IMG/VR virus record: IMGVR_UViG_3300005253_000034
Span: 1-54,311 of that record
Source: a virus
Taxonomy: Duplodnaviria > Caudoviricetes
DNA length: 54,311 nucleotides
Strand: one strand, 5' to 3'
Part shown: one piece after another, positions 3,429 through 54,311 of the stretch
How the letters are laid out: every line of letters starts with the position of its first letter
Position numbering within the stretch: position 1 is the first letter of the stretch
Translations under genes and position numbers: made by a program
The notes under the pieces: generated by a model
Told to the model about the DNA's origin: nothing
Seen by the model: the letters and a program-made list of their open reading frames with translations, nothing else
The model's database searches: none

Positions 3429-3827
3429 TTATCGGATGGAAACAGAACTCGGCATACCTTATCGGACTTTGTTGGCAACGGGATTCTGGACTGCGTGAAT
3501 TTTGGCTCGGAATCCAAAATGAGTTTTAACAGGTGAGGTCTTTCCACTAACATTATCGGACTCGCCCGGGGGCCGATGGGGGGTCTCCCTCCGCAGGTTG
3601 TTGGCGGTGCAGGAGTTAGCGTTTGGACACTTAGTTATTCAGACTTTCCCTACTTGACTGGACACTTAGTTATTCAGACTATATAATCCGAGTCAAGTGG
3701 GAAATTGAGGATCGGCGGAGTCCTGACGTGCCCTGTGCTGGACGAAGTGATTAGGCTAAGTGCTATTGGTGGTTGGGTTTATGACCTTTTTAGTGATCTC
3801 GATGATTAGGTTTATGACCTGCGGAGG
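3429..3827. repeat. non-coding repeat-rich region (TTATCGGACT boxes, 22-bp direct repeat, inverted repeat)
   Basis: TTATCGGACT at 3459 and 3553; TGGACACTTAGTTATTCAGACT at 3624 and 3659; GGTTTATGACCT at 3776 and 3809. Confidence 0.8.
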
Positions 3828-3940
3828 TAAATAGGGGAGGCCCTCATCTTGTTGGCTGGAGGTGGAGCCGATGAGGACCTCGGTGAAGTGAGTTATTTGA
3901 TTTTTCTTATTGGAAGGACTATAACCACGTCCCATTCATT

Positions 3941-7261: not shown

Positions 7262-7293
7262 CTTAAACCCCTTCCTGCGGAGGTAATCTGTTG

Positions 7294-11092: not shown

Positions 11093-12076
11093 TTAGTTTC
11101 GTTGCTTTTTTGCCGCCACGATGGCGGTATTATAGTTCTTCTTGAACACATCCCACGCCTTGATGTGGGGAATTTCAAACTTACGAATCATCCCGGGTGC
11201 AGCCCGACCCTTACCTTCTCGCTCGGCGGTGGTATAGGAATCAAGGTAATATTTTGAGATCATCTCTGTACCACAAGGAACCGTAATCTTCTGTCCCCCA
11301 GGCAGTATTCTTTGCTCTTTTTTCTCGATTTCCTTGTTGATGCAGTAAATCGTGAGCTTAAAATCACTACTGCGAACAATCTTGGCGGCAAATGAGGGGA
11401 ACGCTGCGTCACGAATAACGGTTCTCTCCTTATGTGTTACCGGATTTGTCTCGGTCTTGGTAATCATATGCCCCACACAAGACCATACAAAACCAGCCTC
11501 CTCTAATTCCCGCAGTCTTGAAAAACACCGCTCCCGAATCATCGACCATCCATGTCCTTGTGCTCCAAAATCCGTAATATCCGGGACGCCCTTTTCGACT
11601 TGAAGTCTATTAGTAATCATACCAAGCCACTCATCCGTAGTGTCAATGGATACCCGATGGACAATATGCTTCCCTTTCTTACCCTCATCAATGAGCTTCT
11701 GCGTAACCTCCATATACCGCTCATAGCTCCCGATAGGAACCCGCATCGCCCTTGGTCCAATAATACTCTCTGCCGATTTATCGAAATCCAGAATCAGGTT
11801 GTCGGGAATACTGGAATCAAATGTGGTTTTACCCTCACCACTCGGCCCGACAATATATAGGTTCAAGTCCTCCGCAGGTTTAGGATCATAACCAGCCACG
11901 ACTCCGAGCTTGGCCCAGTCAGCGGGGATAACCGGCACAGTATTAGGAGTCGCAGCCAGCACAACATTCCCTTGGGGAACTTGTGCTTTGAATGCGGCCC
12001 CTTGAATTGGAGAAGTCTGGCCTTGTGGTTGAACTGCCTCTCGAATGGATTTTCTTTGTGCATCACTAACTGTCAT
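11093..12076 (-). CDS. AAA_24/Sak4-like ATPase (recombination)
   Basis: GPSGEGKTT, ILDFD, SIDT, GH motifs. Confidence 0.75.
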   Translation of the reverse strand: MTVSDAQRKSIREAVQPQGQTSPIQGAAFKAQVPQGNVVLAATPNTVPVIPADWAKLGVVAGYDPKPAEDLNLYIVGPSGEGKTTFDSSIPDNLILDFDKSAESIIGPRAMRVPIGSYERYMEVTQKLIDEGKKGKHIVHRVSIDTTDEWLGMITNRLQVEKGVPDITDFGAQGHGWSMIRERCFSRLRELEEAGFVWSCVGHMITKTETNPVTHKERTVIRDAAFPSFAAKIVRSSDFKLTIYCINKEIEKKEQRILPGGQKITVPCGTEMISKYYLDSYTTAEREGKGRAAPGMIRKFEIPHIKAWDVFKKNYNTAIVAAKKQRN

Positions 12077-12090
12077 TTTCTTCCTTTCTC

Positions 12091-12513
12091 TTATGCCGGA
12101 ACTGATTTTTCAAGCTCAACTTCTTTCTTGGATTTATCCCCGGGACGTTTGATAAGCATAGCACCTAATGTCCCACCAAATAGCGTGGGGAGTAGTAAAC
12201 CTATTGGTCCTTCCGGGGAAAACACCGTCGCCTTAATCTCTTCCCCCGCCAATATAGCAATGTTCGTTATGCCTTTATAGTACCCCCCTTTAATTTTTTC
12301 AATCGTGAGCTTATAATCTATAGCTCGGCCAACCCGCTTGGCATCAAACAGTGTAGTATAAGGCATAAGCAGTCTCGTCGTAGTATTTGCCCACGCCGCC
12401 GCATTTTCATCTACAAAAGTAGGCGTAAGTACATCTTGAATCGCAGAACATCCAAACATTACCGCTAAACCCATCACCATCAAAACCGTTAGTGTCTTTT
12501 GTTTCTTATTCAT
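12091..12513 (-). CDS. putative lipoprotein with C-terminal membrane segment
   Basis: MNKKQK, hydrophobic stretch, lipobox-like MFGC; GAGGA RBS. Confidence 0.6.
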   Translation of the reverse strand: MNKKQKTLTVLMVMGLAVMFGCSAIQDVLTPTFVDENAAAWANTTTRLLMPYTTLFDAKRVGRAIDYKLTIEKIKGGYYKGITNIAILAGEEIKATVFSPEGPIGLLLPTLFGGTLGAMLIKRPGDKSKKEVELEKSVPA

Positions 12514-15503: not shown

Positions 15504-15531
15504 ATTATAGCACATTTCATAAATTAGTCAA
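15504..15531 (-). promoter_or_regulatory. promoter TTGACT-N16-TATAAT
   Basis: Consensus with extended -10. Confidence 0.75.
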
Positions 15532-15809
15532 GTCTTTTTTACTTTAATTCTATTTTTTCTTCCTGCCATAAATCCTTCTATATATGCTTTTGCTTCCTGC
15601 ATTGTGGGGTAACTCTCAATCAATCTAACAACTGCCACCTGACAACCACTGCCAATTTTGGTTTTCATCACTTCATCCACTCCCCAAAACCCAAAATAAG
15701 GTGTGATTGATAATTCTGCTAATGCGTCAGTTATTATTCTAATTTCTTCCCCTATGGTAATGGACACACTACTCGGCAGTTCTTTTGGATATTTCATACT
15801 GGTTGCCAT
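15528..15809 (-). CDS. hypothetical protein
   Basis: AGGAG RBS, abuts the ERCC4 gene. Confidence 0.6.
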   Translation of the reverse strand: MATSMKYPKELPSSVSITIGEEIRIITDALAELSITPYFGFWGVDEVMKTKIGSGCQVAVVRLIESYPTMQEAKAYIEGFMAGRKNRIKVKKT

Positions 15810-20166: not shown

Positions 20167-20260
20167 TTCTTAGTAATTTGGAGGATGTGTATAATAAGGC
20201 TCACGGTCAACATAAAGCTAACTATAGTCAGACAAATTTTTATTATCATTTTTCTTCCTT

Positions 20261-20485
20261 TCAATGTGATTCTATGGTTATATCTTCTATTCGATGAGGT
20301 GGAATTGCCAACACTTCCGAAGAACTCATTTCCTCAAAAAGACCTGTGGCAAACATTTTCGTTGCGGTGTTTTTGCCTATGCTGATTCGTTCTTTTTCCG
20401 AGGTATAAGGATAATTATTTGTAATTATCACAACATCAGGAGGATTTACAATTCTAACTATTAATCGAACATAATTCGTAGCCAC
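20261..20485 (-). CDS. hypothetical protein
   Basis: GAAAGGA RBS; first gene after the promoter. Confidence 0.6.
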   Translation of the reverse strand: MATNYVRLIVRIVNPPDVVIITNNYPYTSEKERISIGKNTATKMFATGLFEEMSSSEVLAIPPHRIEDITIESH

Positions 20486-29982: not shown

Positions 29983-32900
29983 CTATGCAAATCTATGAAC
30001 AGTTAAAAATGTTATGTGGTTAGTACCAGAAATATTTAAATTACCACTCGCACTATGAAATGCAAATACTTCAATATAATCAGAATCTAATAAATACATA
30101 TCTGCACTTATAACTCTGGAGCAGGTGGCAATGCTACCTGCTCCCCAAACACCCTGATTCCAACCAGTACCATTTTTATAAATTGAAATAGCTAAATTTT
30201 CTCCATCGGCTGGGGACTCAATATGCACACCAGCACTAACGTGATAATATCCAGTTGTATCGGGTGAAAACCTATAATTAGTAATATTATCAAATTCGCC
30301 ATCGGTATCATAATCTTTAGTAGCAAATTGGATTTTTCTAAAAGCTGTTCCTGATATAACTTGTACAGTGCTTCGATAAACTGAACATTTAGAAGTGAAA
30401 CTACCACCAGGAGCAGCACCAAACTCTAACCCATCCTCACCAACATTAACTACTACAGTATTACCAGCTTGTCCTGTATAATTTGCGGGGTCTGTATCCG
30501 TTAAACCAATCCAAGTAGTCACCCCGGTAACGGCAGCTTTGAATATAGCATTACCTGTCCCCGTATCTTTAGTAAGTACATGTTCATTAGTAGCACCGGA
30601 TACGGCAGACAAAGCATCAATAGCGGCTTGTGCTGTTCCTTGTCCAGTTCCACCATCCGCTATTGGTACATCTGTTCCTCCTGCTCGATAGACGATGTTA
30701 CCTTCAATATTAACATCACCAGCAGATGCTCTGGCTATCGTAGTATCGCTGACGTGTCCCAATTCAATACCTGTAACTTGAGGACTATCGCCAGTACCTA
30801 ATCCTAATGATGTTCGTACTACTGTAGTAGCCTCATACTGAAATACACCTGCCCCAGTAGCTACTATAAATTGTCCATCCGAGGCAGGAACACCCAATGA
30901 ATTTAAATCATCAAGTATAGCACCCTGGGTCTGACCACCTATATCAGATAATACCTGTGCTCCTGTACGGTATTTAATTACGCCTGTAGAACTGACAAGA
31001 AACTTGTCTACGTCAGAACCTTCTGCTGCGATTACAGCAAGGGTAACATTGCCAGCAGCATCAATAGTCACCCTGTTCACGTTATTTGTTTTGAAGTGCA
31101 TTTTTGCATTTTGGCGATTAATAAAAGCAATGTCATTATGTGAACTTTCTGATGTACTTCCTAAACGCCAAAGCTGTGTATTTGTATTAAAAGAGTTATG
31201 CCCTGTAATAACTGAACCAGAAAATTCAGTACTCCCGTCACCAGTTACATGGAGATGACCACTGGTAAAACCACCAATACTCCCAGGCAAAGAACCTTTA
31301 ACTTCTAATGGAGCGTTTGGAGCAGTTGCCCCTGTCCCAATGCCGACGTAACCACTCTGTAATATCGTTAATTTAGGAGTGCCCAGTATTGAGCCTGTTG
31401 AAATTATAAATTCATCATTTGAGGCATCATTTCCAAAAGTCCATTTACTACTTGAACCGTTTCTTAGTCTTATTGTTGCATCTGTAGTTGCTAATGATTG
31501 CAGAAGCAGTTGTGCCTCGCCCCCTGAATTTTTAATATGAAAGTCTACTTCTGGACTCGCCGTGCCGATGCCTAATCTATCGTTAGTATCATCCCAGAAT
31601 ATGTTTGAGTTATCTTGTGAAATTACACCACTTGCACCGGCGAATAGAACTGAACCTTGTGTTAGACCAGATGAGGCAATAGATTGGCTGAATGTTACCG
31701 TCCCAGTTGTAGTGAAGCTAAATGCTCCTCCGTCACTATTTACAGCATCGTGTTGAAGCGTTTGAGTATCGTGTAAATGAGCCGATGCCGAAGCTCCTAT
31801 ATCAGATAATACCTCTGCTCCTGTCCTATACTTTATGTCTCCGGTTGAATCCACCAGAAATTTATCGACATCCGACCCCTCCGCAGCAATGGAAGAAAGC
31901 GTAAGGGTGTCGTGTGTTACCGCATCCCCCGTACCAAGTCCAAGAGTGGTAGCCTGTGCAGCCGCAGTGGCATCATCCAATATTGCCCTACCTGCGGAGG
32001 TTAAAGCCGATTCCGCCCAAGTAGCCTCGGAATAAAGAGTGGTATCTATCCCTGTATATAATCTCCCCCCATCTACACCTACTATATAATTAGTTCCGTC
32101 TGAATCTATTGCTACTCCATGCCATTTCTTGTCGAAATCCCCAGCAGGTTGTTCTTCTCCCCAAGTCACCCCGAAGTCGGATGATATATATAATCTTCCA
32201 TTCGATATAGCAGCTATTAAATGACTTCCATCAGAATCCGAAGCCGCCTCATACCAACTTTTATTAGCATCTCCGGCTGGTTGTCTCTCTGTCCAAGTAG
32301 CTCCACTATCATCCGAGGTATATAGCCTCCCACCTACAACTCCAGCCATCAAATGACTTCCATCATCATCAGATGCCACACAGTTCCACCATTCATCTGA
32401 GGCTCCGGCTGGTTGTCTCTCTGTCCAAGTTACACCGGAATCAGCCGATGTATATAATCTTTTTCCAGATATTGCGGCTATCAAATTAGTTCCATCTAAA
32501 TCTGATGCTACAGCCCACCACCACTCATTCGGTGCTCCTGTTGGTTGTCTCTCTGTCCAAGTAGCTCCACTATCATCCGAAGTAAATAATCCTCCTCCAT
32601 TTGCAGCAGCTATTAAATGACTTCCATCAGAATCCGAAGCTGCCGCAACCCATTGTTCATTACTGGCTCCGGCTGGTTGTCTCTCTGTCCAATTCACACC
32701 AGAATTAGCTGATGTATATAATCGCCCATTATTTACTCCAGCTATCAAATGACTCCCATCAGAATCCGAAGCTGCCGCAACCCATTGTTTATCCGAGGCT
32801 CCGGCTGGTTGACGCTCCGTCCAAGTAGCTCCACTATCATCAGAAGTATATAACCTCCCAATATCGACTCCTACCAATAAATTCGACCCATCCGAATCAG

Positions 32901-33423
32901 AGGCCATACATTCCCAATTTTTATTAGCATCTCCGGCTGGTTGCCTCTCAGTCCAAACAAGTTCAGTAAAGGTACTATAGGTATCTGTATAGATTAGTTT
33001 ATCTACAGCCGTCCCAAGTTGATTTATTTGGTCTATATCGTGAGGAAGTGTCGTCAAAAAATTAGAATTCTGGGGTAGATTCAAACCCATAACGGTGATT
33101 ATACCGTCAAGCCCATCCCGACCGGGGACACCCTGAATACCTTGTAGCCCAACTATACCACTAAGATTAAAATCAGCCCATCCCTTCCCCTCCGCAGGGA
33201 TAAAAGCACTCGCTAAATCATTTAGTTGAGTGTTCCCTCCCGGGGTGTACCCATAATCGGTATATTTTCTTATTGTGCTCCCACCCCCCCAAGGAATGAC
33301 TACTCCAAATCCATCTGTGGCAAGGGGATTATCTATTCCGGGGAGGAATAATCCTTGGAGATTAGGAATCGGGGTACTGAAACTATTGGGGTCCTCTCCA
33401 GAATTGACAAATATCTCGGACAC
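29983..33423 (-). CDS. tail fibre/receptor-binding protein with Asp-box (BNR) beta-propeller repeats and a C1q-like C-terminal domain
   Basis: About 6-7 x 44-aa repeats WTERQPAG...ASDSDG...GRLYTSDDSG; short Gly-X-Y tract; LGIGT..P fibre motifs; F.P...GYY. Confidence 0.75.
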   Translation of the reverse strand: MSEIFVNSGEDPNSFSTPIPNLQGLFLPGIDNPLATDGFGVVIPWGGGSTIRKYTDYGYTPGGNTQLNDLASAFIPAEGKGWADFNLSGIVGLQGIQGVPGRDGLDGIITVMGLNLPQNSNFLTTLPHDIDQINQLGTAVDKLIYTDTYSTFTELVWTERQPAGDANKNWECMASDSDGSNLLVGVDIGRLYTSDDSGATWTERQPAGASDKQWVAAASDSDGSHLIAGVNNGRLYTSANSGVNWTERQPAGASNEQWVAAASDSDGSHLIAAANGGGLFTSDDSGATWTERQPTGAPNEWWWAVASDLDGTNLIAAISGKRLYTSADSGVTWTERQPAGASDEWWNCVASDDDGSHLMAGVVGGRLYTSDDSGATWTERQPAGDANKSWYEAASDSDGSHLIAAISNGRLYISSDFGVTWGEEQPAGDFDKKWHGVAIDSDGTNYIVGVDGGRLYTGIDTTLYSEATWAESALTSAGRAILDDATAAAQATTLGLGTGDAVTHDTLTLSSIAAEGSDVDKFLVDSTGDIKYRTGAEVLSDIGASASAHLHDTQTLQHDAVNSDGGAFSFTTTGTVTFSQSIASSGLTQGSVLFAGASGVISQDNSNIFWDDTNDRLGIGTASPEVDFHIKNSGGEAQLLLQSLATTDATIRLRNGSSSKWTFGNDASNDEFIISTGSILGTPKLTILQSGYVGIGTGATAPNAPLEVKGSLPGSIGGFTSGHLHVTGDGSTEFSGSVITGHNSFNTNTQLWRLGSTSESSHNDIAFINRQNAKMHFKTNNVNRVTIDAAGNVTLAVIAAEGSDVDKFLVSSTGVIKYRTGAQVLSDIGGQTQGAILDDLNSLGVPASDGQFIVATGAGVFQYEATTVVRTSLGLGTGDSPQVTGIELGHVSDTTIARASAGDVNIEGNIVYRAGGTDVPIADGGTGQGTAQAAIDALSAVSGATNEHVLTKDTGTGNAIFKAAVTGVTTWIGLTDTDPANYTGQAGNTVVVNVGEDGLEFGAAPGGSFTSKCSVYRSTVQVISGTAFRKIQFATKDYDTDGEFDNITNYRFSPDTTGYYHVSAGVHIESPADGENLAISIYKNGTGWNQGVWGAGSIATCSRVISADMYLLDSDYIEVFAFHSASGNLNISGTNHITFLTVHRFA

Positions 33424-38784: not shown

Positions 38785-38854
38785 TTTAGTATCCTTAAAG
38801 AAAAAACTGTGCCTCCCCATATCCTCGGCGAGGCACACAATTAGATATTCAAAC

Positions 38855-41503
38855 TTACGCAGCAACGATTGTTGCACCAGATACGAGAGGCTCATAACGG
38901 ATATACCATTCAATAGAATCGTCTGCATCTCCATTAGCATCAAGATTCATTATGATACTACCATCATCGGTTACAAAATCAAATCCCATATCTCCTATTA
39001 CGCCGTTGGCAGTTAAGACTAACGCTGCTCCAAACGTAGCACCAGGGGTAAGAGTGCTCCCTACTGCTGCGGCATTAATATCGACTGTTCCTGTAACATC
39101 AACAGCATTTCCAGGAGTAGTAGGTTTAGTAGTTACTTTACAGTTGATTGCAACAGCTTTGATTACATTAGCAACAACAGCAACAATACTTGTAACTTTA
39201 ACCGGGCCACCGCTAACGGTAAACAGAATTGTTTCTCCTGAAGCAGCAGTGAGGTCGGTTTTAGTTTTGGTTGCCGATTTTGCTATTAACGGGTCAATAA
39301 CAGAAGTATCGGCCAGAATAGCGTCAAGGTCAGTATGAGCCAAATCAAGCGAGGCTTTCGCACTATCGTCTTGGGCGGCTCCACCGTCGCCTGAAAATGC
39401 ACCTGACTTATCTGAAATAGCTTGGAGTGAATCAGTGGTACACTTATAATCAGTTGCATCTTTCGATTTAGATAAGATATGAGCTACTAAGGAACCAGAA
39501 ACACAGTGTGGTTCTAAATCACCATCAGCCACTACACCAGTGTCTGTACCTGTAAGAGTATCAAGTTGGTCTGCCGCTAAAGCTGTGGTCACACCTGTAC
39601 CAGCCGCTAAAGCAACCGCTATTGCTTCCAGCGAATCGGTAGAACACTGATAGGTACTCGTATTTGCTGTGGCGGACAGAATATGAGCCAATAAAGTCCC
39701 ATCAAGGCAGTGTGCTGTCAAATCACCATCAGCCGCAACGGTAGTATCCACACCTGCTAAAGTGTCAAGTTGTATTCCGGTTAAAACAGTCGAGCCAGTT
39801 CTGAGAAGGTCAGAAATAGCCTCCAGCGAATCAGTTGAATTATCAAAAGATGTTATATTCGCCGGATTTCCTTTAGCCATTAGAAAAGCCAATACACTAT
39901 CGTTTACTACGGAATCTGGGTACAAATTGCCACCACCATCCGCAGCCGAAGCTAAGAAGTGAAGTAAATCAGCTTCAATCGCAGTGGTAACACCGGTTCC
40001 AGCCACTATATAATCTCGAATAGCCTCCAGCGAATCAGTTGTGTTGTCAAAGGTATAGGAACCATCTTTGTGGAGAATATCGTGGAGTGATTTTTGAACA
40101 GGAGGTTCATCAACAGCGGCAGAAGTATTAGCTTCCACCAGAGTAAGAAGGTCTCGAATAGCTTCTAAGGAATCAGTAGTATTGTCAAAGGTGTAACTAC
40201 CGTCCTTATGTAAGATGTCGTGGAGTGACTTTGCTGTAGGGGGTTCATCAACAGCAGCACTTACATTATCAGTAATCGCCGTTACCTTATCCGAAATAGC
40301 CTCTAAGGAGTCAGTAGTATTATCATAGGTATTTGCACCATCTAATTTCGACAAAATATCCTGTAGAGAGTTACCAGTTGGGGTATCCGGTACGGCATCG
40401 GTTACATCTGTCGGAGAGCTAATTCCACCAACAGCATCCGCTATGGCTTCAAGACTGTCAGTTGTGTTGTTATAAGTGTAGCTACCGTCTTTGTGTAGCA
40501 TATCGTGCAGTGAATTTGCGGTCGGAGGTTGTGAAACGGCTGTATTAAGAGCAGCCTGAACTTCTCCACCGCCAATTATAGCAGCAGCAGTACCGTCAGC
40601 GGTAACACCGTAGGTTTTGAACCAACTCATTTTTGCCGCCACAATCATACTATCGACTGCAAGTCCTGTGGATTCAATATAGGCATTTCGGATGATCCCC
40701 GTACAATCAGCGTGTACCTCAATGCCGGGTTCGTTGTCCTTGACTTTACAGGTAAGGTCGTCAATTAAGAGGTCGGTACAGGCTGCGGTATCGTTGACGA
40801 TTGCAGCCGTACTGTAGTTACCGATGAATCGGCATTTTTCAACGATACAGTTGTCGGATGCACCGTTGAAGTAAACAGCGGCGACCGCTTCTGCGGAGGC
40901 AACTTTTGTACGTCCCAGACAACCCTTAATTTTGGTGTTGTCACAACCAGACTTTACTTCTATCCCGGCAATGAATTCATCAGCAGCCGCATCACCCTCC
41001 GCAAAATCACAATCTTCGAGTTTTGTACCGGTTACACCCGTTTCAATATCGACACCGATAAGGACGGCTGTGATGCTGGGTACAAATCGTAGGTTAATGA
41101 GATGAATATTGTTGGCTCCAATATCGACACTGGAATTGGCGTGGCCAAAGTTTACAGCGGCTTTGTTATCTCCCTCACCAATACCTATACAGGTAATGTC
41201 GGATACGTCGAAGTCAACTTGAGCATTGACTATTGTATCGACGTGACCGGGGGCTGCGAGGATAACACTTCTTTCCCCCGCCGTACACAAACCGATTGCG
41301 TAGTCGATTGTGGCGAGGGGTTTTTCAAAAGAATGCCCGTGTTCGGTATCATCGACATCAGAGGCATTTGTGTGTCCTGAATCAACGAACAGGACTTGGG
41401 CTTCAGATAAAAGTCGTGGGCCGAGGTTGGAAAGATAAATTATTGCTTTCCACCCGTATTTTGCTACGAGGTCTGAAACTCTAAATGGATTTGTTGCTGG
41501 CAT
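38855..41503 (-). CDS. 882-aa virion protein: beta-helix-like N-terminal domain plus TDSLEAI repeats
   Basis: [14 protein letters not shown] (pectin-lyase-like start); about 8 repeats ending (T/S)TDSL(E/Q)AI; directly after the capsid gene. Confidence 0.65.
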
Positions 41504-41552
41504 CTTAATAATCTCCTAAAAACTAAGCTAAACTATCAATTATTAATGGTTC

Positions 41553-41609
41553 AAAAAAACCGAGAGGTCAAACACATACAGAGAAAGGAAGAAAATGACG
41601 ACCTCTCGG
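41553..41609 (-). terminator. capsid-gene terminator with 30-nt loop
   Basis: 10-bp perfect stem CCGAGAGGTC/GACCTCTCGG plus T7. Confidence 0.8.
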
Positions 41610-41645
41610 CTATTCACTTTTTCAAAGAACTACAAATACAACGAC

Positions 41646-43217
41646 CTACAGCATAGTCGCCTCCAACAAATTTGTGAGCTTTACGCCTCTCGGATCCTTT
41701 GGTGCAATTAAGCAGTAATACCAGAACGGAGCCTCAAGTAACTCCTGTGGAGCACCAGACGAAGCGTGGGCGACCATAAATACACCCGAGTGGCCACCGA
41801 GGGGGGCAAGGAATTCGATTTCCTGACCCATACTGGCTTCCATTCCGCCTAATCTCGGGGGACTGAATCTCTGGATATTTTCCCCAGCGAATTTCAAGGC
41901 ATATAAGGTCTTGGTTAGACACATCGGACTCATAATCCACTCATAAGAACGTCCGCCGAACTCGTAGGCAATTTGAGACCAACCACCCTTGAAACTCAGG
42001 GCTTTGCCGGTACGCTCGTAGTTTTGTCTATTGTTATACAGACCGGGCTGTTGGAGCCATTTCAACTGAACTCCCTGAGTGGTAATAATGGTGTCGAGGG
42101 TTTCACCTGGATAAGCGTCCAAGTATCCACCGATGTAACCATTAATTACGTCGTCAGTAAGAGGCCCATTAACGGCTTGGACTTGGGACTTGAACTGAGG
42201 ATATACTCCTAAGTCAAGAGCCGCAGCCCCGCTTGCACCGCCTAAAATCACACCAGACGATTTAATCCAGTCATTGATTCCCCAACTAAACTGAGGACGG
42301 GAGCCAGAAGTATAACGACTTGTCTTGGAAAATACCAACCAATCATTGGCAACCCCCGGAACCGTTGCCGAGCCGTATCCGGCTGTAAAATCAGGTAATC
42401 CGCCTGTATCGGCATTAACTGGTGCGAGGGTTATCTTTTTCCCCAAGTAATCGACACTGCTGATTATTAGGTGGACATATTTTGCAGTCGAATCGGTATA
42501 GTTACGAACATGTGTCGCATCGGTATTCACACCATCTTGAAGCACCCCGGCACTATCCTTGACAATATCAATCCGCATACTCTGGCGGAAGTTAGCTATT
42601 CGACCATATACCTCGTCAAGAGTAATGACAATATAATCGCCCTCTCCAGACTGTGTGCTCTCGGCTATCGCCGAAATCCTGCCGAGAACTTGATTTATGT
42701 TCCCGGAAGCATTCGTGACGCTGTGGCTGAAGAAACTGGAGGCCTCATATATAGCCTTCAGCTTAGCCACCGCCTTCATATCTCGTGCCACCTTCTTAAT
42801 CTGGGCAGCGTTCAAGAGGTCAGCCTGTTTCCAAGCAGCGGGAATACTGAAGTTCCCGACAACCTTATGTAGAACCAACTCCCTCTTAATATCGCCCATG
42901 TGGGGAGATTCCGCAGCAGTTGGGAAAATCGTGAGGCCAGCAGCAGCCGACCCTTGTGCCAATAAACGAGTCTGATTCCCGACAATCGTGGACATTTCCG
43001 GGCCAAGAGGATCACCGGACTCAATTAAACCAGCTACCCCGGTTTCGTACAAATGTATTACTTTATAGCCCCGACCGAGACCTGTTTGGCTTTTAACACC
43101 AAATGCCGTCCGCTTGATCTTATCGAACACCGGAGCTATTTCAGGCCCGGCCTCGTCAATCATCATTGGTAATTCTTCACGCACTAACGAATCTAATGCA
43201 GCTATAGCTTGAGCCAT
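41646..43217 (-). CDS. major capsid protein (putative)
   Basis: Position after portal and scaffold, strong AAGGAG RBS, downstream terminator, GINDWI and terminal PR..KL patterns. Confidence 0.75.
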   Translation of the reverse strand: MAQAIAALDSLVREELPMMIDEAGPEIAPVFDKIKRTAFGVKSQTGLGRGYKVIHLYETGVAGLIESGDPLGPEMSTIVGNQTRLLAQGSAAAGLTIFPTAAESPHMGDIKRELVLHKVVGNFSIPAAWKQADLLNAAQIKKVARDMKAVAKLKAIYEASSFFSHSVTNASGNINQVLGRISAIAESTQSGEGDYIVITLDEVYGRIANFRQSMRIDIVKDSAGVLQDGVNTDATHVRNYTDSTAKYVHLIISSVDYLGKKITLAPVNADTGGLPDFTAGYGSATVPGVANDWLVFSKTSRYTSGSRPQFSWGINDWIKSSGVILGGASGAAALDLGVYPQFKSQVQAVNGPLTDDVINGYIGGYLDAYPGETLDTIITTQGVQLKWLQQPGLYNNRQNYERTGKALSFKGGWSQIAYEFGGRSYEWIMSPMCLTKTLYALKFAGENIQRFSPPRLGGMEASMGQEIEFLAPLGGHSGVFMVAHASSGAPQELLEAPFWYYCLIAPKDPRGVKLTNLLEATML

Positions 43218-43219
43218 CG

Positions 43220-43687
43220 TTATTTACTCCTTAAAGTTCTACCTTCTTCTGTCTCTACGACATTATTTTTATAATCCGTAAAAACATTAGTTTGCAGGAA
43301 CCTATTAATTTCGTCAAGAGATGTTACATTTTCCACCCAAGCAATCATGTTATTACATCTTTTACAAACAAGTCCTCTAATTACACCCGTCTTATGGCAG
43401 TGCTCAACACACATAGCATGACGGATAGCTGATTGTTCCTCGCCACAGATAGCACATTTCTCACCTTGAATACGTAAAATCTGTTCGTATTCGGGGACAG
43501 TTAAAAGAATCCCTTGGGCTAACCAATGAGATTCTCTTGTACTATTTGGCATGGCAGACAGATACAAAGAACCATCCACTCTGTGTTTACAACAAGTGCT
43601 ATGTTCCCGATAGTATTTTGAACCATCGGGACGCTTGAGATGGGTAAGTTGCCGACTTCGGTTACAATCCTCAATAGAGCATCGCAA
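43220..43687 (-). CDS. endonuclease VII-family (His-Me) homing-type nuclease
   Basis: CAICG...EHCHKTGVIRGLVCKRCN. Confidence 0.8.
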   Translation of the reverse strand: MRCSIEDCNRSRQLTHLKRPDGSKYYREHSTCCKHRVDGSLYLSAMPNSTRESHWLAQGILLTVPEYEQILRIQGEKCAICGEEQSAIRHAMCVEHCHKTGVIRGLVCKRCNNMIAWVENVTSLDEINRFLQTNVFTDYKNNVVETEEGRTLRSK

Positions 43688-43832: not shown

Positions 43833-44714
43833 CTATTTCATCTCTCGGGCAGTCTTAACCGCCCTCTGAAGATACCTGGCAACAAGATTTTTCTCGTCAC
43901 CATCTTCATTTGAAGGAATTCGCTTAATTGGTTCGTTGGCTTGGATTTCGGATGAAAGGCCTTCACTCGGCCCCAGGCCCAAAACGATGGGGTGCTGGTT
44001 GAGTTTCTTTGGGATACCAAGTTTAGTCAACTGCGACCGTACCCTCTGTACGCTTGCTGCTACCATCTCGGCTCCAAACGGTTTGCCATCTTGAATCTTC
44101 CTAAGAACATCCTCAGCTACCATATTCCTAACTTCGGCGAAAGTATCGTCTTTGTCCTCGCCTACTATCATTTTACCAAATATCTCATCTTTGTCAACCG
44201 CTTTGTCCGATATTTCTCGAATTTCTTTTCTGGCATCATTGACGTGCCGCTGTTGCGAGAAATCCAAAATAGCCCGGACCTCCGCAGGAGTGGCGTCAAA
44301 TTGCTTCTGGAATTCAGCACTAAAATCAGTCTCTGTGGCTTTTTTCTGCGGAGGGTCATTTTCTTTTAGAGATTGCATAAACTCAGCAGGCTCAATTTCG
44401 AGTAATCCGGCCAATTCCCGAACATTGGATTCGGATGGAGTATCTTCTTTGGAAATTGATTTCACGAGGGTTTCTATCCGAATCCCCCGCTCTGCGGTTT
44501 TTGTAGCCTCTGCAGATTCCCGGAATCTATTGTCGGCTCCAGTTGCTTTCTCGGCTCTTATTTTTAGCTCGTCAATAGTTAAGGCAACATCTTGGCCGTC
44601 CACCTTAATTGTGTGAGTTTCGACCTTCTTTTCTTCTTGCTTCTCCTCTTGCTTTTCTTCCTGCTTCTGCTCTTCTTGTTTCTCTTCTTGTTTTTCTTCT
44701 TCGGGCATTTTCAT
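43833..44714 (-). CDS. scaffolding protein (putative)
   Basis: EEKQ repeats, IKVDG...TIDEL; lies between portal and capsid. Confidence 0.7.
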   Translation of the reverse strand: MKMPEEEKQEEKQEEQKQEEKQEEKQEEKKVETHTIKVDGQDVALTIDELKIRAEKATGADNRFRESAEATKTAERGIRIETLVKSISKEDTPSESNVRELAGLLEIEPAEFMQSLKENDPPQKKATETDFSAEFQKQFDATPAEVRAILDFSQQRHVNDARKEIREISDKAVDKDEIFGKMIVGEDKDDTFAEVRNMVAEDVLRKIQDGKPFGAEMVAASVQRVRSQLTKLGIPKKLNQHPIVLGLGPSEGLSSEIQANEPIKRIPSNEDGDEKNLVARYLQRAVKTAREMK

Positions 44715-47095: not shown

Positions 47096-47122
47096 TTAAG
47101 CCTTCCTTTCGTACTATCATTT

Positions 47123-47228: not shown

Positions 47229-49076
47229 TTATCCCACAATATTCCTTTGACCCCGAACCACACGCCGGTTATTCGGGTCTATAGCTGATTTACGAGCATT
47301 TTTACTCAAGACATCAAGCATCTCGTCGGTTATCTCGGATGGGGATACCCCCGAGAGTAAAGGTGTCCCCTTAACAAGAGGCAGGTTTCGGCGAATACGC
47401 TCCAAAAGGCTTGGTTTCCCTTTTTCCTTCGTAAATATCCCACCTCTATTTTTCACAACGTATTGGGACATCGAGAGGGTATCAACAGCATCGTCGTGGG
47501 GCAATAGGGCTAAGTCTGGGGTATAGTCCTCGGTCTGTTGATATAGCTGGTCAAAAGGCCATTTACCTGCAAGATGGGCTGGATATTTTATTCTACCAGG
47601 ACGGAATCGCCACTCCATCCCGGATATTCGTTGACTCTTGGAGACTCTGGCCGGATATGTAATCGGGAAAACTCTTGCCCTCCAAGGCTGTGAGATTTTC
47701 TGCTCCATTTCCTCAATATATTCCTTGACAGCCTCCGCAAAACTCATCTGGATGCTCACGGCCTCAATTCCGAGGACCCGGGGCCGCCACGCTAATCCGT
47801 ATTCATAGATTAATCGCAACAATGTCGCATCCTTGGCTCGGCCAAGCCACATATCCAGAATCCATAAGGTATTCAAGGTGTCAAAGCCAAGGATCATGAT
47901 ACAGGAATAATCATTGTATTGAGAAAGACCACACCCATAATCGAATAGCAAAATCCGATACATCGGAAGTACCAATTCTCGGAAGGGTTTCTCAAAATCC
48001 TTATAGACCCTGCGACCCGGCTCCATATATCGTTCCGACCACTTTATGTTTCCGATATGAGCCAGTGGATTTTTCCAGTCAAATTCCCCCTCAACACTAT
48101 ACTCATTCTTACGAGGGTCAATTACGAGAATACGGTCTTGAGCAGAGATTGGTTCGTTGCAGTATTCACTGGCAAATGCGGATGGGCCAATTTCTTCTCG
48201 CCGAGCCTCAAGAATTTCCTGTGACCATTTCTCCGGCCATAAAACATAGACTTTCTTGGGGTCCTCCTTATCGTATTCGATTGCCTTCAAGACCTTACGG
48301 TTCCAAAAGTCAAATCGAGAGTCGTCACTTGTTGTGGCGTGATAGAGAAAAGACCTCCTATTAATCAAAGTCCCTATCCAATAAATAGACGACCCGGATT
48401 CAAGCATCGGGATTATCTGCCGAAACAGAATCATCTCGAATTTCTCAACTACAACTTGTGCAGCGGCTTGAGAGTCTGAATCCGGGTCATTTTCAGGATC
48501 ATCAAGTATAAATAATCTTGGTCGCCCCCCTCGCTTCTTCCCCATTACACTGAGACCTTTTATAACCGCCCCATTCATCAAAGACAGTTGGTGATGATTC
48601 CAAATCTTCTGGCCTCTTGGGGGCTTCACCTCACCAAAGTCTTGAATTATTAATTCGTTCTCAACAAACTGCTGTATCAATTTGTCAAACCGTTCCTCAA
48701 CTTGTCTATCAGTAGCCAATCCTAAAGTTATTTCGTAATGAGGACGAGTTAGAGCCAATAGCATTGGGGCCTCAAGACCTATCACGGTTGACTTAGCCGA
48801 ACCTCGGGGAGCCGCACTTGCATTTCGGGCGTGTTCCCCCAAATCAAGAATCATCTCGTAGTGAAAATCTGGGGATTCCTCAAAACCGTTTTTATAGAAC
48901 AACTTCCCCGCACCAGCGAGGTAGCACCTGCGGAAGAAATCCCAAGCCACTACCAAATCAAAAGGAGTTGATTGATTGTGCAAGACAGCCAACCTCGCCT
49001 GTTTCTGAGCATCAAGCGATAGCGAATCATAATCTCTCGGCAGAGGCCACAGAGGATAAGGACGCTGAATCCACAT
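47229..49076 (-). CDS. terL: terminase large subunit
   Basis: APRGSAKST, ILDDPE, FDYG...DYS, GIE, HDDAVD. Confidence 0.9.
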   Translation of the reverse strand: MWIQRPYPLWPLPRDYDSLSLDAQKQARLAVLHNQSTPFDLVVAWDFFRRCYLAGAGKLFYKNGFEESPDFHYEMILDLGEHARNASAAPRGSAKSTVIGLEAPMLLALTRPHYEITLGLATDRQVEERFDKLIQQFVENELIIQDFGEVKPPRGQKIWNHHQLSLMNGAVIKGLSVMGKKRGGRPRLFILDDPENDPDSDSQAAAQVVVEKFEMILFRQIIPMLESGSSIYWIGTLINRRSFLYHATTSDDSRFDFWNRKVLKAIEYDKEDPKKVYVLWPEKWSQEILEARREEIGPSAFASEYCNEPISAQDRILVIDPRKNEYSVEGEFDWKNPLAHIGNIKWSERYMEPGRRVYKDFEKPFRELVLPMYRILLFDYGCGLSQYNDYSCIMILGFDTLNTLWILDMWLGRAKDATLLRLIYEYGLAWRPRVLGIEAVSIQMSFAEAVKEYIEEMEQKISQPWRARVFPITYPARVSKSQRISGMEWRFRPGRIKYPAHLAGKWPFDQLYQQTEDYTPDLALLPHDDAVDTLSMSQYVVKNRGGIFTKEKGKPSLLERIRRNLPLVKGTPLLSGVSPSEITDEMLDVLSKNARKSAIDPNNRRVVRGQRNIVG

Positions 49077-49979
49077 TTACTTTTTTAACTCTTCAAGGGC
49101 TGGGAGAGTACGAATCACATCGAAGAAAGCTATCGTCGTGGCGATTCCAGCACACCAAATATCGTTTCCAATGTTGCTACCCATCACGACTTTAAGGCTT
49201 GGCCAAATCCCCTCAAGATACCCGGGTTGTCTAAGCAGAGTAAAGACCATCTCGGGAATCACGGCTCTATCCTCGAAATCCCAAGTGGTCGTCGATGGTG
49301 TCGTCATTGGCTGAGAACACAAGGCAACGATATGAAAAGCAACCCCCGCCGCCACAAAACCAGCGTCCATAATATGATTCCGCAGAGCCGTGAATTCAAT
49401 GTCCTCCGCAGGGGGTTTGGGGCGTGTAATCTCAAGTGCCTGGGATGGAAATGTTTGACCACTACCAGTCACCTGCGGGGGGTGGGGAGATTCAAATTCG
49501 TGAATTAGGTTGTCGATTTTAATCTTATCTTTTGGGGTGGGACATTTATGAGCTATAAGTTCTGAGTTGAATTCAAAACGAACACCACAATCAACACAAT
49601 GACTTTTAACTTCCTGTGGAAAAGATTCAAACTCTTCGGGGGATTCCTCGGCTAAATTAGAATCTGTTTTAGAATTAATCCCCTGCGGAGGAGATTCCAG
49701 GGAAGAGTTTTCGGTCACAGGTTGGGGGTTTGGTTTTGATACAGGGATTATCGGGACTTTCGGCACTGTGTGAGTCACCGCTACTGGCTCCTCCGGGTAC
49801 TGGTCTTGAAGTCTCTTCTCCGTCTGGTGGTTTAGTTCCTCCAGAGTCGCCATCTCGTCCCGAGTTAGTGGTTGGTCGGGGACATCCCTCAGAACTTGAG
49901 GAGGTGTCTTGGGTGTCTCGGCTCTCTTGCCTATCGCATTCTCGATTAGGTTCGGTTGGGCTTTCTTCTTTTCTGTCAT
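49077..49979 (-). CDS. Pro-rich hypothetical protein (start MTEKKK)
   Basis: AAGGA RBS; abuts terL. Confidence 0.6.
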   Translation of the reverse strand: MTEKKKAQPNLIENAIGKRAETPKTPPQVLRDVPDQPLTRDEMATLEELNHQTEKRLQDQYPEEPVAVTHTVPKVPIIPVSKPNPQPVTENSSLESPPQGINSKTDSNLAEESPEEFESFPQEVKSHCVDCGVRFEFNSELIAHKCPTPKDKIKIDNLIHEFESPHPPQVTGSGQTFPSQALEITRPKPPAEDIEFTALRNHIMDAGFVAAGVAFHIVALCSQPMTTPSTTTWDFEDRAVIPEMVFTLLRQPGYLEGIWPSLKVVMGSNIGNDIWCAGIATTIAFFDVIRTLPALEELKK

Positions 49980-51554: not shown

Positions 51555-51582
51555 TTATATTATAGCAGATACTCAATAAGTT

Positions 51583-51789
51583 TCAAGTGGATTTTTTCCA
51601 GAAAGAATGGTGATATTTATAAGGCGTTACTTGCCCCCCGCAAACAACGACTATGCAAAGGGTATTTCTCCTAAATCGACCATAAGCTGTTCCCAAACAA
51701 ACCCCCTTACGATGTTTCGGGAATATATTTTTCTTTATAGCCAACGGTGTTGTCTCCACTGGCATTCCCCATTTGATTCTATGTCTCAT
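51583..51789 (-). CDS. hypothetical basic protein
   Basis: ATGA overlap. Confidence 0.5.
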   Translation of the reverse strand: MRHRIKWGMPVETTPLAIKKNIFPKHRKGVCLGTAYGRFRRNTLCIVVVCGGQVTPYKYHHSFWKKST

Positions 51790-52466: not shown

Positions 52467-52933
52467 TTCTTTACTCCGATAATGGCTACCTTATAGACTA
52501 CTGTTTCTGGGGGCCATTCCAATTTAACATCTAAGTTTTTCATTGTGGCGGTTACGTTGATGCCCATAGCCTCGGGACAAAAAGATACGTGCCAATTCCC
52601 TCGGCCTTCCAGATAATATACCGTATCTGCAACTACTTCTCTCAGCATTTTATTGGCTGTACCCTGCCAATATAGACAACAATCTATTTGCCGTTGAGAC
52701 CAATCAGGATGTTTCCTTCTCATATTGCGTCGATGGGCGGCAAAGTCGAAGATAATCCAGTTTACCCAAAAACCTTTTGAGATGTTGAACCAATCTTCTA
52801 TTCGGGGGCATTTTGGAGGACAGAAGCCACGTTTGCCATAGTTGGGGCATCCCTTGGGGTGATTAGGATAAGGTCGGAAGCAAAGGTCTCGCACGGAATA
52901 GTCAATTACGATTTCTTTAGTAAAGGCGTTCAT
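52463..52933 (-). CDS. DUF2284-like metal-binding protein
   Basis: CPNYGK...CPP...PEAMGINV. Confidence 0.75.
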   Translation of the reverse strand: MNAFTKEIVIDYSVRDLCFRPYPNHPKGCPNYGKRGFCPPKCPRIEDWFNISKGFWVNWIIFDFAAHRRNMRRKHPDWSQRQIDCCLYWQGTANKMLREVVADTVYYLEGRGNWHVSFCPEAMGINVTATMKNLDVKLEWPPETVVYKVAIIGVKK

Positions 52934-54311
52934 TTTTGGTTTCTCCTGAGTGCTGCAGAGGCGGCGTCAATAATGCTCTGCCTGCTTTCAGAGACGTGCG
53001 GTGAGTTCTCATTTGGACAACCGCCACCACTCACGAAGCCTGTTGTTGTCCTGACCGTCTCCACGTTCTTAGTAACAGGCAGAGTAGTTTCCAGCGTGAT
53101 TTCTTGTCCCTCCACTGCTGCGATGCGTTTTACGGCGATTTCACAATATTCTCGTTCCTTCTCGATACCGATGAAGCTGATGCCAAGTTCCTTGCAGGCT
53201 ATTCCAGTTGTGCCGGAGCCAAGGAAGGGGTCAAGGATTATCTGGTCTTGGCCGGGCATCTTGAGTAGAGTACAGAGATACTTCATTAGCGTGAGGGGTT
53301 TGACTGTAGGATGGTTATTTTTCACGACAGCGACTCGATTGAGTCCGATGTGTTTTTGCAGATATTCTTTCTCTCCTCGGTTTTCGGCTCCTTGTGCCCC
53401 GCCAGAACGAGCCAAGAGTTTGTCCTCACAATCTTCCATTCCCATATTCCGTTCCTTGCGAGAAGTTTTGGCACAATAAAAAAACCTCGAGGCTCCCCCG
53501 GAATCACCGTAGGTGTCGTTTCGCACCGTGTCAGGATTGAACTTGCCGTAGGTATTTTTGTTGGGGTTATCAGACATCTGACGTTTCGTGCCTGCAGCCA
53601 TAAATCCACTTTTCTTGGTTCCGGTTTGTTCATCCAGCATTCTCACGGAGCATTCGGGATGGCAGGATATTTTTCCGTTTTCATCTCCCCAACAATCAGG
53701 ATGATGAGAAAAGAGTAAATTGGCAGGCCAGCGACCTTGAACTTCGTGTGGAGGATTGTCAGGTTTATTTTTGTCGGCAGAACCAAAAACTTCTTCCTCC
53801 GTTCTGCCACGTCTAATGAATCCTGCTTCTGGATTTTTACGAATTTCTGTGCCTATTTTGCCGCCGTTGATGTTGAGTCCGGCGACTCCGTGTGCCTCGG
53901 CGTTGTGGGCGAATGTGCCGTCCAAAGGTTTCATTGCCACGATGATTGGCTCCCACGCAGGCTTGAGGGCAGTGCCGTAGCCGTCCCAGAGTTGGGCGAG
54001 GGCGGTTTGCGTTTCTGGCATAATTAAAGCATTGTTGATATTATTCCAACCCCGATTATCAATAAGTTCACGGCTTGCAATCGCTCCATACGCAGGTTTC
54101 TTCCCCACTGGTTTTACGCCTTTAGCCTTTTCGATGGCTTTGCTGATGTTATGGGACTTTGGGAAGCCTGAGCCGTAGAGCCACATCATGCAGTCTCGGA
54201 TTTCCCAGCCAGCGTCCTCGATTGCACAGGCGAGGCGATGGTAGGTGCGGGTCCCGCCGAAGCAGAGTAGGAAGCCCCCCGGCTTGGTGATTCGGAGCAT
54301 TTCCTTGGCCC
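52930..54311 (-). CDS. C-terminal part of DNA N4/N6 methyltransferase (beta class)
   Basis: HPTVKP, ILDPFLGSGTTG; continues from 1-410. Confidence 0.9.
   Translation of the reverse strand, partial: AKEMLRITKPGGFLLCFGGTRTYHRLACAIEDAGWEIRDCMMWLYGSGFPKSHNISKAIEKAKGVKPVGKKPAYGAIASRELIDNRGWNNINNALIMPETQTALAQLWDGYGTALKPAWEPIIVAMKPLDGTFAHNAEAHGVAGLNINGGKIGTEIRKNPEAGFIRRGRTEEEVFGSADKNKPDNPPHEVQGRWPANLLFSHHPDCWGDENGKISCHPECSVRMLDEQTGTKKSGFMAAGTKRQMSDNPNKNTYGKFNPDTVRNDTYGDSGGASRFFYCAKTSRKERNMGMEDCEDKLLARSGGAQGAENRGEKEYLQKHIGLNRVAVVKNNHPTVKPLTLMKYLCTLLKMPGQDQIILDPFLGSGTTGIACKELGISFIGIEKEREYCEIAVKRIAAVEGQEITLETTLPVTKNVETVRTTTGFVSGGGCPNENSPHVSESRQSIIDAASAALRRNQK
54191..54311. repeat. 121-bp terminal direct repeat (copy 2)
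   Basis: Identical to 1-121. Confidence 0.95.

Follow-up and report, generated by a model that had tools for sequence, protein, structure and literature searches.

A terminator-type hairpin behind the major capsid gene of a marine-sediment phage carries a conserved loop that mirrors translation start sites

The stretch of DNA analyzed here, referred to as the window, is the whole of IMG/VR record IMGVR_UViG_3300005253_000034 (54,311 nucleotides (nt); Duplodnaviria, Caudoviricetes), a complete phage-like genome from marine-sediment metagenomes that was assembled as circular, with bases 1–121 repeated at 54191–54311. The element under study is a hairpin that forms the 3´ untranslated end of the major capsid gene and whose loop contains 20 nt exactly complementary to the start of a distant Sak4-like gene. 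Every long open reading frame (ORF) of the window lies on the minus strand, and all genes named below are on that strand. The capsid gene (41646–43217; 523 amino acids (aa)) sits after the terminase large subunit gene (47229–49076), a 673-aa gene and a scaffold-like gene (43833–44714) whose 293-aa product contains charged EEKQ repeats. A predicted consensus sigma-70-type promoter (47150–47123, minus strand) is located upstream of a 92-aa ORF, and this ORF followed by the 673-aa gene occupies the space between the promoter and the scaffold-like gene. An endonuclease VII/HNH gene (43220–43687) lies between the scaffold-like and capsid genes, and the gene that starts 3´ of the hairpin, at 41503, encodes 882 aa and has a beta-helix match that is weak and below threshold. 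The Sak4-like gene (11093–12076, 327 aa) matches PHROG 124 (E 9.4e-13) and the AAA_24 ATPase family PF13479 (E 7.5e-16). A megablast comparison of the window with the phage GenBank collection gave no match.

The name of the capsid gene is justified by the predicted structure of its product. An AlphaFold model of the 523-aa protein (AF2, alignment of 80 homologues) reached a pLDDT of 83.8 and a pTM of 0.83, and a Foldseek search of the PDB with this model returned 53 matches at E ≤ 0.001, of which those listed are phage capsids and encapsulins. The best matches are phage HK97-fold capsids, namely VP1 (6.6e-08), Pa223 (2.2e-07) and the SU10 capsid (1.1e-06), with modest TM-scores of 0.2–0.38 by query length. 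At the sequence level, the protein matched no Pfam or PHROG family and no PDB sequence, and a lead from the ESM Atlas (PF17236, SU10_MCP) was present in just 16% of one neighbouring cluster. The model indicates that the gene encodes an HK97-fold major capsid protein, which bears out the label given to it in the earlier reading of this DNA (hereafter the original prediction). A search with the capsid protein against genome contigs for a prophage or host found no relative.

The hairpin starts 36 nt after the capsid stop codon, and its parts are described here in the 5´ to 3´ direction of the minus-strand RNA. Just 5´ of the hairpin, an A-rich motif (GTTCTTTGAAAAAGTGAATAG, 41610–41630) is conserved in alignments A1 and A3, and its A run pairs with the U tract in the minimum free energy fold. 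The 5´ arm of the stem (41600–41609, RNA CCGAGAGGUC) and the 3´ arm (41560–41569, RNA GACCUCUCGG) form 10 base pairs (bp), or 13 pairs if G·U and flanking pairs are added. Both arms enclose a loop of 30 nt (41570–41599), or of 28 nt if an extra pair forms. The 5´ two-thirds of the loop are filled by GUCAUUUUCUUCCUUUCUCU (41580–41599), which contains no purines after its CA and mirrors a Shine-Dalgarno (SD) sequence, a spacer and an AUG; the core that is conserved in the family corresponds to 41581–41598. The 3´ part of the loop (41570–41579) reads GUAUGUGUUU in the window and GUCGGUGUUUCAG in most relatives. An A7 run at plus-strand 41553–41559 gives the U7 tract of the predicted intrinsic terminator, which is followed by a conserved spacer (41503–41552) comprising GAACCAUUAA..., GUUUAG repeats and then the SD AGGAG of the 882-aa gene. 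The hairpin has a predicted folding energy of −24.8 kcal/mol (z −2.74).

Behind the major capsid genes of T7-like and other phages, intrinsic terminators with a GC-rich stem and a U tract directly follow the most highly expressed late gene. A GC-rich stem and an immediate U tract behind the gene were found here and in 37 distinct relatives, in support of the terminator-like hairpin of the original prediction with the antisense 20-mer in its unpaired loop. Compared with ordinary intrinsic terminators, in which the loop typically has 3–8 nt, the loop is long (28–30 nt here and 28–62 nt in relatives) and is conserved while the stem drifts. The capsid hairpin was absent from the list of a standard terminator scan with 3–8-nt loops. 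Rfam 15 gave 0 matches at gathering score in the whole window and chance-level matches only (E 0.8–3.5) for 41450–41700. Among the terminator-like hairpins in each of 4 complete genomes, the CU-tract loop is unique, and other loops of 25–51 nt exist. Two alternative folds were rejected. A pseudoknot of the upstream GAAAAGUGA with the loop segment UCAUUUUC was discarded by eye, as the motif varies (L002, L003, L009 and L012) with no compensation in the loop; for an antiterminator in which the 5´ arm pairs with the CU tract, the pairing would be as weak as that of any purine-rich arm with a U-rich tract, and the terminator stem is far more stable.

The complementarity itself was confirmed by reading both sites and by searching the window. 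Plus-strand 41580–41599 (AGAGAAAGGAAGAAAATGAC) is the exact reverse complement of plus-strand 12072–12091 (GTCATTTTCTTCCTTTCTCT), and the ORFs place both genes on the minus strand, as the original prediction had stated. The 12072–12091 segment comprises the SD, the spacer, the AUG and two further bases of the Sak4-like gene, the ATG of which occupies 12074–12076; the stop codon of an upstream 161-aa ORF (12091–12093) overlaps the first base of the 20-mer. With up to 3 mismatches allowed, just these two sites were found in the window, and 0 of 100 dinucleotide shuffles contained two or more. In the self-comparison for inverted matches that had been proposed, this pair (I1) is the longest perfect one in the window. 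Similarity stops at 20 nt, and the 20-mer is therefore not an inverted fragment of the Sak4-like gene, an idea that had been put forward as a possible refutation. No duplex predicted for the loop on the transcribed strand is stronger than that with the Sak4 start, at −36.5 kcal/mol; the next one reaches −30.2 kcal/mol over a background of about −24 kcal/mol, and the target region is predicted to be weakly structured. The label SSB, which had been attached to a 180-aa gene, received no family match in Pfam and PHROG searches and was not confirmed.

The hairpin is conserved well beyond this phage. Capsid-based searches of viral contigs identified 23 loci and those of metagenome contigs 62, with 64–97% capsid identity, and the hairpin is present in every relative that is readable from the capsid gene to the next structural gene, also behind inserted HNH genes. 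A strict filter demanded that 8 or more stem pairs enclose the tract and that a T-rich tail be present; 51 loci passed it, and these represent 37 distinct elements. The wider listing contains 43 distinct contexts with the element; at L002, L017, L093, L097, L112 and L122, the element was seen in context listings and lost at the strict filter. Three contigs (L096, L126 and L135) end inside a gene inserted after the capsid stop, and L142, with a gene inserted after the capsid stop as well, has a copy of the motif further along the contig. The two arms of the stem co-vary. In an alignment of 12 sequences, double compensatory changes occur in 7 of the 10 pairs and no pair is broken, and in 36 sequences such changes occur in all 10 pairs. 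The apparently broken cells of the larger alignment are mis-registrations, because each sequence alone forms a perfect stem.

The loop is near-invariant while the stem sequences differ widely. All 37 distinct elements carry CAU, four or five U residues and a purine-free CUUCCUUUCUC-type tract, with the CUUCC core in 32 of them, and the flanks GTTCTTTGAAAAAGTGAATA, GTCGGTG and GAACCATTAA are also conserved. The CU tract is predicted to be unpaired, with a mean probability of 0.73 over the 37 elements. Loop variation consists mostly of C-to-U transitions and of U insertions and deletions, and a purine never enters the tract. One subfamily (L002, L093, L097, L101 and L102) reads CUUUCUUUCUU, the sense RNA of which can still pair with GAAAGGAAG through G·U pairs; on its opposite strand, the potential SD no longer has its GG. 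In L124, which at 64% capsid identity is the most distant relative, the loop carries CUUUCCUCCUCU; this corresponds to the anti-SD CCUCC at the same distance from CAU. This pattern of variation, together with the poor ORFs and promoter of the opposite strand, favors a function of the sense RNA in which the start-site-mirror character is maintained, not one exact word. In viral contigs, the pattern CTTCCTTTCTC-N0-6-GTCGGTG had 11 matches outside the family; these look like chance, since none has the flanking motifs of the element. By these comparisons, the element qualifies as a well-defined, co-varying and family-specific RNA motif of uncultured phages.

HNH or endonuclease VII-type genes occur at varying places around the capsid gene (L009–L011, L015, L019, L096, L126, L135 and L142), in the window between the scaffold-like and capsid genes and in other relatives between the capsid stop and the terminator. 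Judged by their positions, these scattered insertions follow the pattern of free-standing homing endonucleases. The motif is common to HNH-containing and HNH-free genomes, and a homing-endonuclease target site was accordingly rejected. In L017 (4595–4760) and L134, a further hairpin is nested within the large loop, where it separates the CU tract from GTCGGTG and leaves the outer stem and the CU tract intact. About 2 kb downstream of the element, three relatives have a second terminator-like hairpin with an invariant AGGATA loop and a co-varying stem of 11–12 bp (gene-strand coordinates 2525–2553 in G001, 55540–55570 in G002 and 3812–3842 in G003), and at about 38808–38838 the window has a related hairpin whose 14-nt loop contains GAGGAUAUG. 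A motif of about 27 nt, CAT(A)TTAATGTAA(A/T)TGT..TTTAG.TTAG, is found 45 nt 5´ of the capsid ATG in relatives (L005, L007, L013 and others), and the same CAT(A)TTAATGTAA motif recurs just 3´ of the terminator, before the next gene (window 41510–41550). This motif may function as a late promoter or as a leader element; a genome-wide pattern of the GUUUAG-rich motif as a late promoter was looked for and none was found.

The start of the Sak4 homologue was readable in four distinct relatives, in which it reads ACATAAAGGAGAATACAGTG (G001), TTAAGGAGAAACTATGAC (G002), AATGGGGGCAGCATAATGACC (G003) and CAAGGAGAAACTATGAC (G004). The loop core is the same in all of them, and in none of the four is the Sak4 start complementary to the phage's own loop beyond a generic AAGGAG. 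The perfect match is specific to this phage. Because all four relatives keep the loop and none keeps the pairing, the loop is older than the Sak4 match and is maintained without it. The original prediction of a built-in shut-off switch for Sak4 had itself named a lack of conserved complementarity in relatives as grounds for abandoning it, and such a lack was found in 4 of the 4 readable cases. In the window, the Sak4 start scores 19/19 against the loop core and the next start 14; the best start regions reach 15/19 in G001, 15/20 in G002 and 18/19 in G003, where the best match is a 101-aa gene located 1.5 kb upstream of the Sak4 homologue. As a separate observation, contigs of related phages from the same metagenomes align to the body of the Sak4-like gene and to the upstream gene with the SD, break near 11972–11978 and resume at 12077, so that the first ~98 nt of the Sak4-like coding sequence are replaced (by 135 letters in one form). 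The 11972–12077 joint of the window is a mosaic boundary exactly at the Sak4-like start codon.

How improbable the match is depends on what it is compared with. Under a start-site-aware null, which uses a position matrix from 371 start regions of 4 related genomes, about 5e-6 to 2e-5 exact matches are expected per genome. The scores of 372 starts against the loop have a heavy tail, with five starts at 16/20, one at 18/20 and one at 20/20. The complement of the loop (GAGAAAGGAAGAAAAUGA) is a textbook strong start site, and the same 18-mer occurs in 21 stretches of viral contigs, 14 of them outside the phage family and lacking the hairpin context. In a search of 185,579 species genomes, the 19/20-mer was found in 29 bacterial contigs from scattered taxa and opens an ORF of at least 60 codons in 19 of these. 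Apart from four Salinibacterium/Rhodoglobus records, these hits converged on no clade or conserved gene as a host target. The match exceeds random expectation, yet both sequences lie at a common start-site optimum and are not necessarily partners. The statement that a chance match is unlikely thus holds against shuffles and against the start-site-aware null, whereas the estimate behind it had ignored that the loop complement is a typical strong ribosome-binding site (RBS) with ATG. In such scans, a long perfect match to an RBS plus ATG needs to be weighed against relatives as well as a start-site-aware null.

Other start sites with the potential to pair with the loop are frequent. Loop matches of at least 9 nt on the transcribed strand versus the other strand number 23 versus 2 in the window, 17 versus 4 in G001, 18 versus 2 in G002 and 25 versus 1 in G003, and many of them lie at gene starts, as a generic anti-SD would see. 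The second-longest contiguous match of the window (I6, 13 nt) is the start region of a small ORF (UUGAAAGGAAGAAAAAUG, 20250–20267, minus strand). A 9-nt match is provided by GAAAGGAAG at 47102–47110 (minus strand), the SD of the 92-aa ORF, which is the first gene after the 47150–47123 promoter; the further RBS of the GAAAGGA type that had been pointed out near 47100 is therefore real. The loop thus presents an unpaired (by prediction) pyrimidine-rich motif complementary to SDs of the GAAAGGAAG type. Of 32 orthologous groups that are single-copy in these four genomes, the scaffold-like gene alone has a start region placed within the top 18% of matches to the loop in every genome (8/89, 15/83, 3/97 and 15/103). 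One such group compares with 0.05 expected, in a rank test that is liberal because orthologous start regions are not independent. The start region of the scaffold-like gene is GAAAGGAAUGAAAAUG in the window and is conserved as GAAAGGAAAAAAAUGCC. The capsid gene's own start (UUUAAGGAGUAAAUAACGAUG) was considered as a target in cis and rejected, as its complementarity is weak (about 6+3 bp by eye).

These data can be read in several ways. The original prediction sees a selected replication-to-packaging switch, in which the late capsid transcript acts specifically to turn off the Sak4/recombination operon. The perfect 20-nt complement over SD and AUG, a duplex 6 kcal/mol stronger than any other in the genome and the small number of exact matches expected from the start-site-aware matrix all argue for such a switch, whereas the pairing is kept in 0 of 4 relatives and the loop in all. 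In L089, the closest relative seen with 97% capsid identity, the U run of the loop is U5 and not U4, the tail of start-site scores is heavy and ribosomes ending the upstream ORF would sweep the target, so that a dedicated Sak4 switch is decidedly improbable. A genuine start site on the plus strand, with the SD and AUG (41595–41597) of a small antisense peptide or of a ribosome-loading site on an antisense RNA, is improbable as well. It would account for the ATG with SD-like spacing in 37 of 37 elements and for the 18-mer being a genuine gene start elsewhere, and the position in a hairpin loop would leave the start accessible. The ORFs that follow this ATG, however, have only 11–51 codons, and neither the frame nor the peptide is kept beyond the stem (13 distinct sequences), while the long ORFs are all on the other strand. 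Furthermore, a good plus-strand promoter is lacking upstream (the sole nearby one scores 9/12), a subfamily persists with no GG in the SD, and the conservation is far stricter than at real start sites.

The strictness of the loop, compared with real start sites and with the freely drifting Sak4 starts of orthologues, argues for another reading, in which the loop would be a platform for a protein or ribosome-associated factor, or would fill a purely structural need, and would set termination, 3´-end stability or translation of the next gene independently of start-site pairing. Putative binders of such a loop are S1, cold-shock proteins, Hfq or a phage regulator. The loop is purine-free and predicted to be unpaired, its flanks GTTCTTTGAAAAAGTGAATA, GTCGGTG and GAACCATTAA are under conservation too, and neither the orthologue ranking nor the co-variation test points to a conserved RNA target. 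However, binding of this kind leaves unexplained both the exact start-site mirror with CAU at a fixed spacing and the replacement of CUUCCUUUCUC in L124 by another anti-SD at the same spacing, and the analysis yielded no candidate protein; we regard it as rather unlikely, though less so than the other alternatives. Finally, the element might act as DNA, as a single-stranded (ss) DNA hairpin or polypurine tract for replication, priming, packaging or recombination, or be a recombination scar that is carried along. A co-varying stem is as compatible with ssDNA as with RNA, the element has HNH genes and nested hairpins inserted beside and inside it, and contigs of related phages are mosaic at the gene boundary marked by the Sak4 start. 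Nevertheless, an A run, a stem and U7 directly behind a highly expressed gene form a terminator signature, the presence of the motif in genomes with and without HNH genes does not suit a homing site altered by immunity, and invariance next to a drifting stem is not what a scar would show. A role at the DNA level is therefore very improbable.

What the comparisons support most directly is a terminator-type hairpin behind the capsid gene with a conserved, purine-free loop that mirrors a start site and is predicted to be accessible. Our preferred reading, held tentatively and at somewhat under an even chance, is an intrinsic terminator that displays a generic anti-SD or anti-start-site loop (CAU, U4–5 and CUUCCUUUCUC). 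According to this reading, the hairpin would end the major-capsid transcript and expose the loop at the 3´ end of an abundant late mRNA. Its pairing partners, either in trans or in cis, would be purine-rich starts that belong to the GAAAGGAAG...AUG class. Pairing would block ribosome binding and might yield substrates of RNase III, and the 3´ end of the capsid mRNA would thereby damp the translation of strongly initiating messages. Targets would drift between phages, and the Sak4-like gene would be the prime target here through a sequence accident or recent selection. Several observations weigh against the anti-start-site loop. In addition to the lack of pairing at the four Sak4 homologues, G001 and G002 have no outstanding start region, with short matches only (9–12 nt, the longest contiguous one being 12 nt). 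At the scaffold-like start, the one group of 32 that ranks consistently high, co-variation with the loop is absent; cognate pairs outscore non-cognate ones in 14 of 20 cases (Wilcoxon p 0.35). The compared genomes thus contain no conserved specific target of the loop. The Sak4 target also overlaps the stop codon of the upstream ORF, and ribosomes would for this reason often clear the duplex. Termination and pairing are predictions, and the pyrimidine-only composition and strict conservation could fit protein binding equally well.

The preferred anti-start-site loop has relatives among known regulators. Hairpin 14 of RNAIII in Staphylococcus aureus is the terminator of this RNA. The C-rich loops of RNAIII (7, 13 and 14) and small RNAs (sRNAs) with a UCCC motif, such as RsaE, are described in PMC2837412 as pairing with the strong SD or RBS of several mRNAs, blocking the 30S subunit and recruiting RNase III. 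The phage element resembles RNAIII in that an unpaired pyrimidine-rich loop belongs to a stable hairpin, and its motif also lies in a predicted terminator loop. In contrast to RNAIII, this motif is carried by the 3´ end of a structural mRNA, not by a dedicated sRNA, and the loop is CU-rich rather than C-rich, spans the spacer and the AUG (18–20 nt) and pairs with its targets, by prediction only, in a manner that is not conserved. In the icaR mRNA, a UCCCCUG motif of the 3´ untranslated region (UTR) pairs with the SD in cis or in trans, inhibits initiation and gives a substrate of RNase III, according to sections of PMC3868564. The icaR motif targets the SD of its own gene, whereas the start of the capsid gene is a poor partner of the phage loop, and in those sections the icaR motif is not described as lying in a terminator loop. 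PMC5737220 and bioRxiv 10.1101/2025.11.27.690947 treat the interaction of the 5´ and 3´ UTRs of hbs in Bacillus subtilis and other long-range mRNA folding, in which pairing of the RBS with remote segments determines how a message is translated and decays. Unlike these cases, the phage loop has no established partner in cis, and the best conserved candidate, the scaffold-like start, does not co-vary with it.

Further features of the genome stand apart from the hairpin. A DNA methyltransferase is encoded at 52930–54300. Tandem repeats of 132 nt are present in 7 copies in an 1146-aa gene (32053–32956), and repeats of 138/204 nt occur in the 882-aa gene behind the terminator (39416–40544); both probably correspond to domain repeats in tail or fibre proteins. 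A promoter-like block with an A run, TTGAC.., a spacer and TGCTATAAT occurs three times on the minus strand (2674–2710, 15504–15540 and 51559–51595; repeat family D7). Together with 47150–47123 and about 20540–20505, these blocks look like host sigma-70-type promoters. The 9-mer CTGCGGAGG is present in 35 copies on both strands of the window (for example at 376–384, 7275–7283, 44346–44354 and 49683–49691), compared with 0.19 expected and at most 2 in 100 shuffles, and in 36–40 copies per related genome. It is found in every reading frame and in intergenic DNA with no extended consensus, and is an iterated motif at the DNA level. In relatives, a copy often lies just 5´ of the terminator element, or directly after the capsid stop as CCCTCCGCAGGG.

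As a whole, the conserved anti-start-site terminator loop varies a known regulatory theme and is modestly interesting. Within the text covered by a full-text literature search, no element of this kind was described behind a capsid gene. To our knowledge, a phage structural-mRNA terminator that doubles as an anti-RBS regulator would, if true, be the first known case. In its widest form, which we consider unlikely, the proposal is that in this lineage of marine-sediment phages the terminator loop of the most abundant late mRNA is a trans-acting riboregulator, a contiguous mimic of the ribosomal anti-SD and the initiator anticodon that titrates strong starts, with targets turning over in the early recombination module (the Sak4-like gene at 20/20 here and the 101-aa gene of G003 at 18/19). 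If so, the phage would keep a timing device in the 3´ end of an mRNA, not in a protein or a dedicated sRNA, and pairing of the loop with start sites would link late expression, by RNA alone, to the silencing of early or host messages that are strongly translated. If the loop had no regulatory function, the family would still offer a clean test case of a loop that is conserved while its stem drifts.

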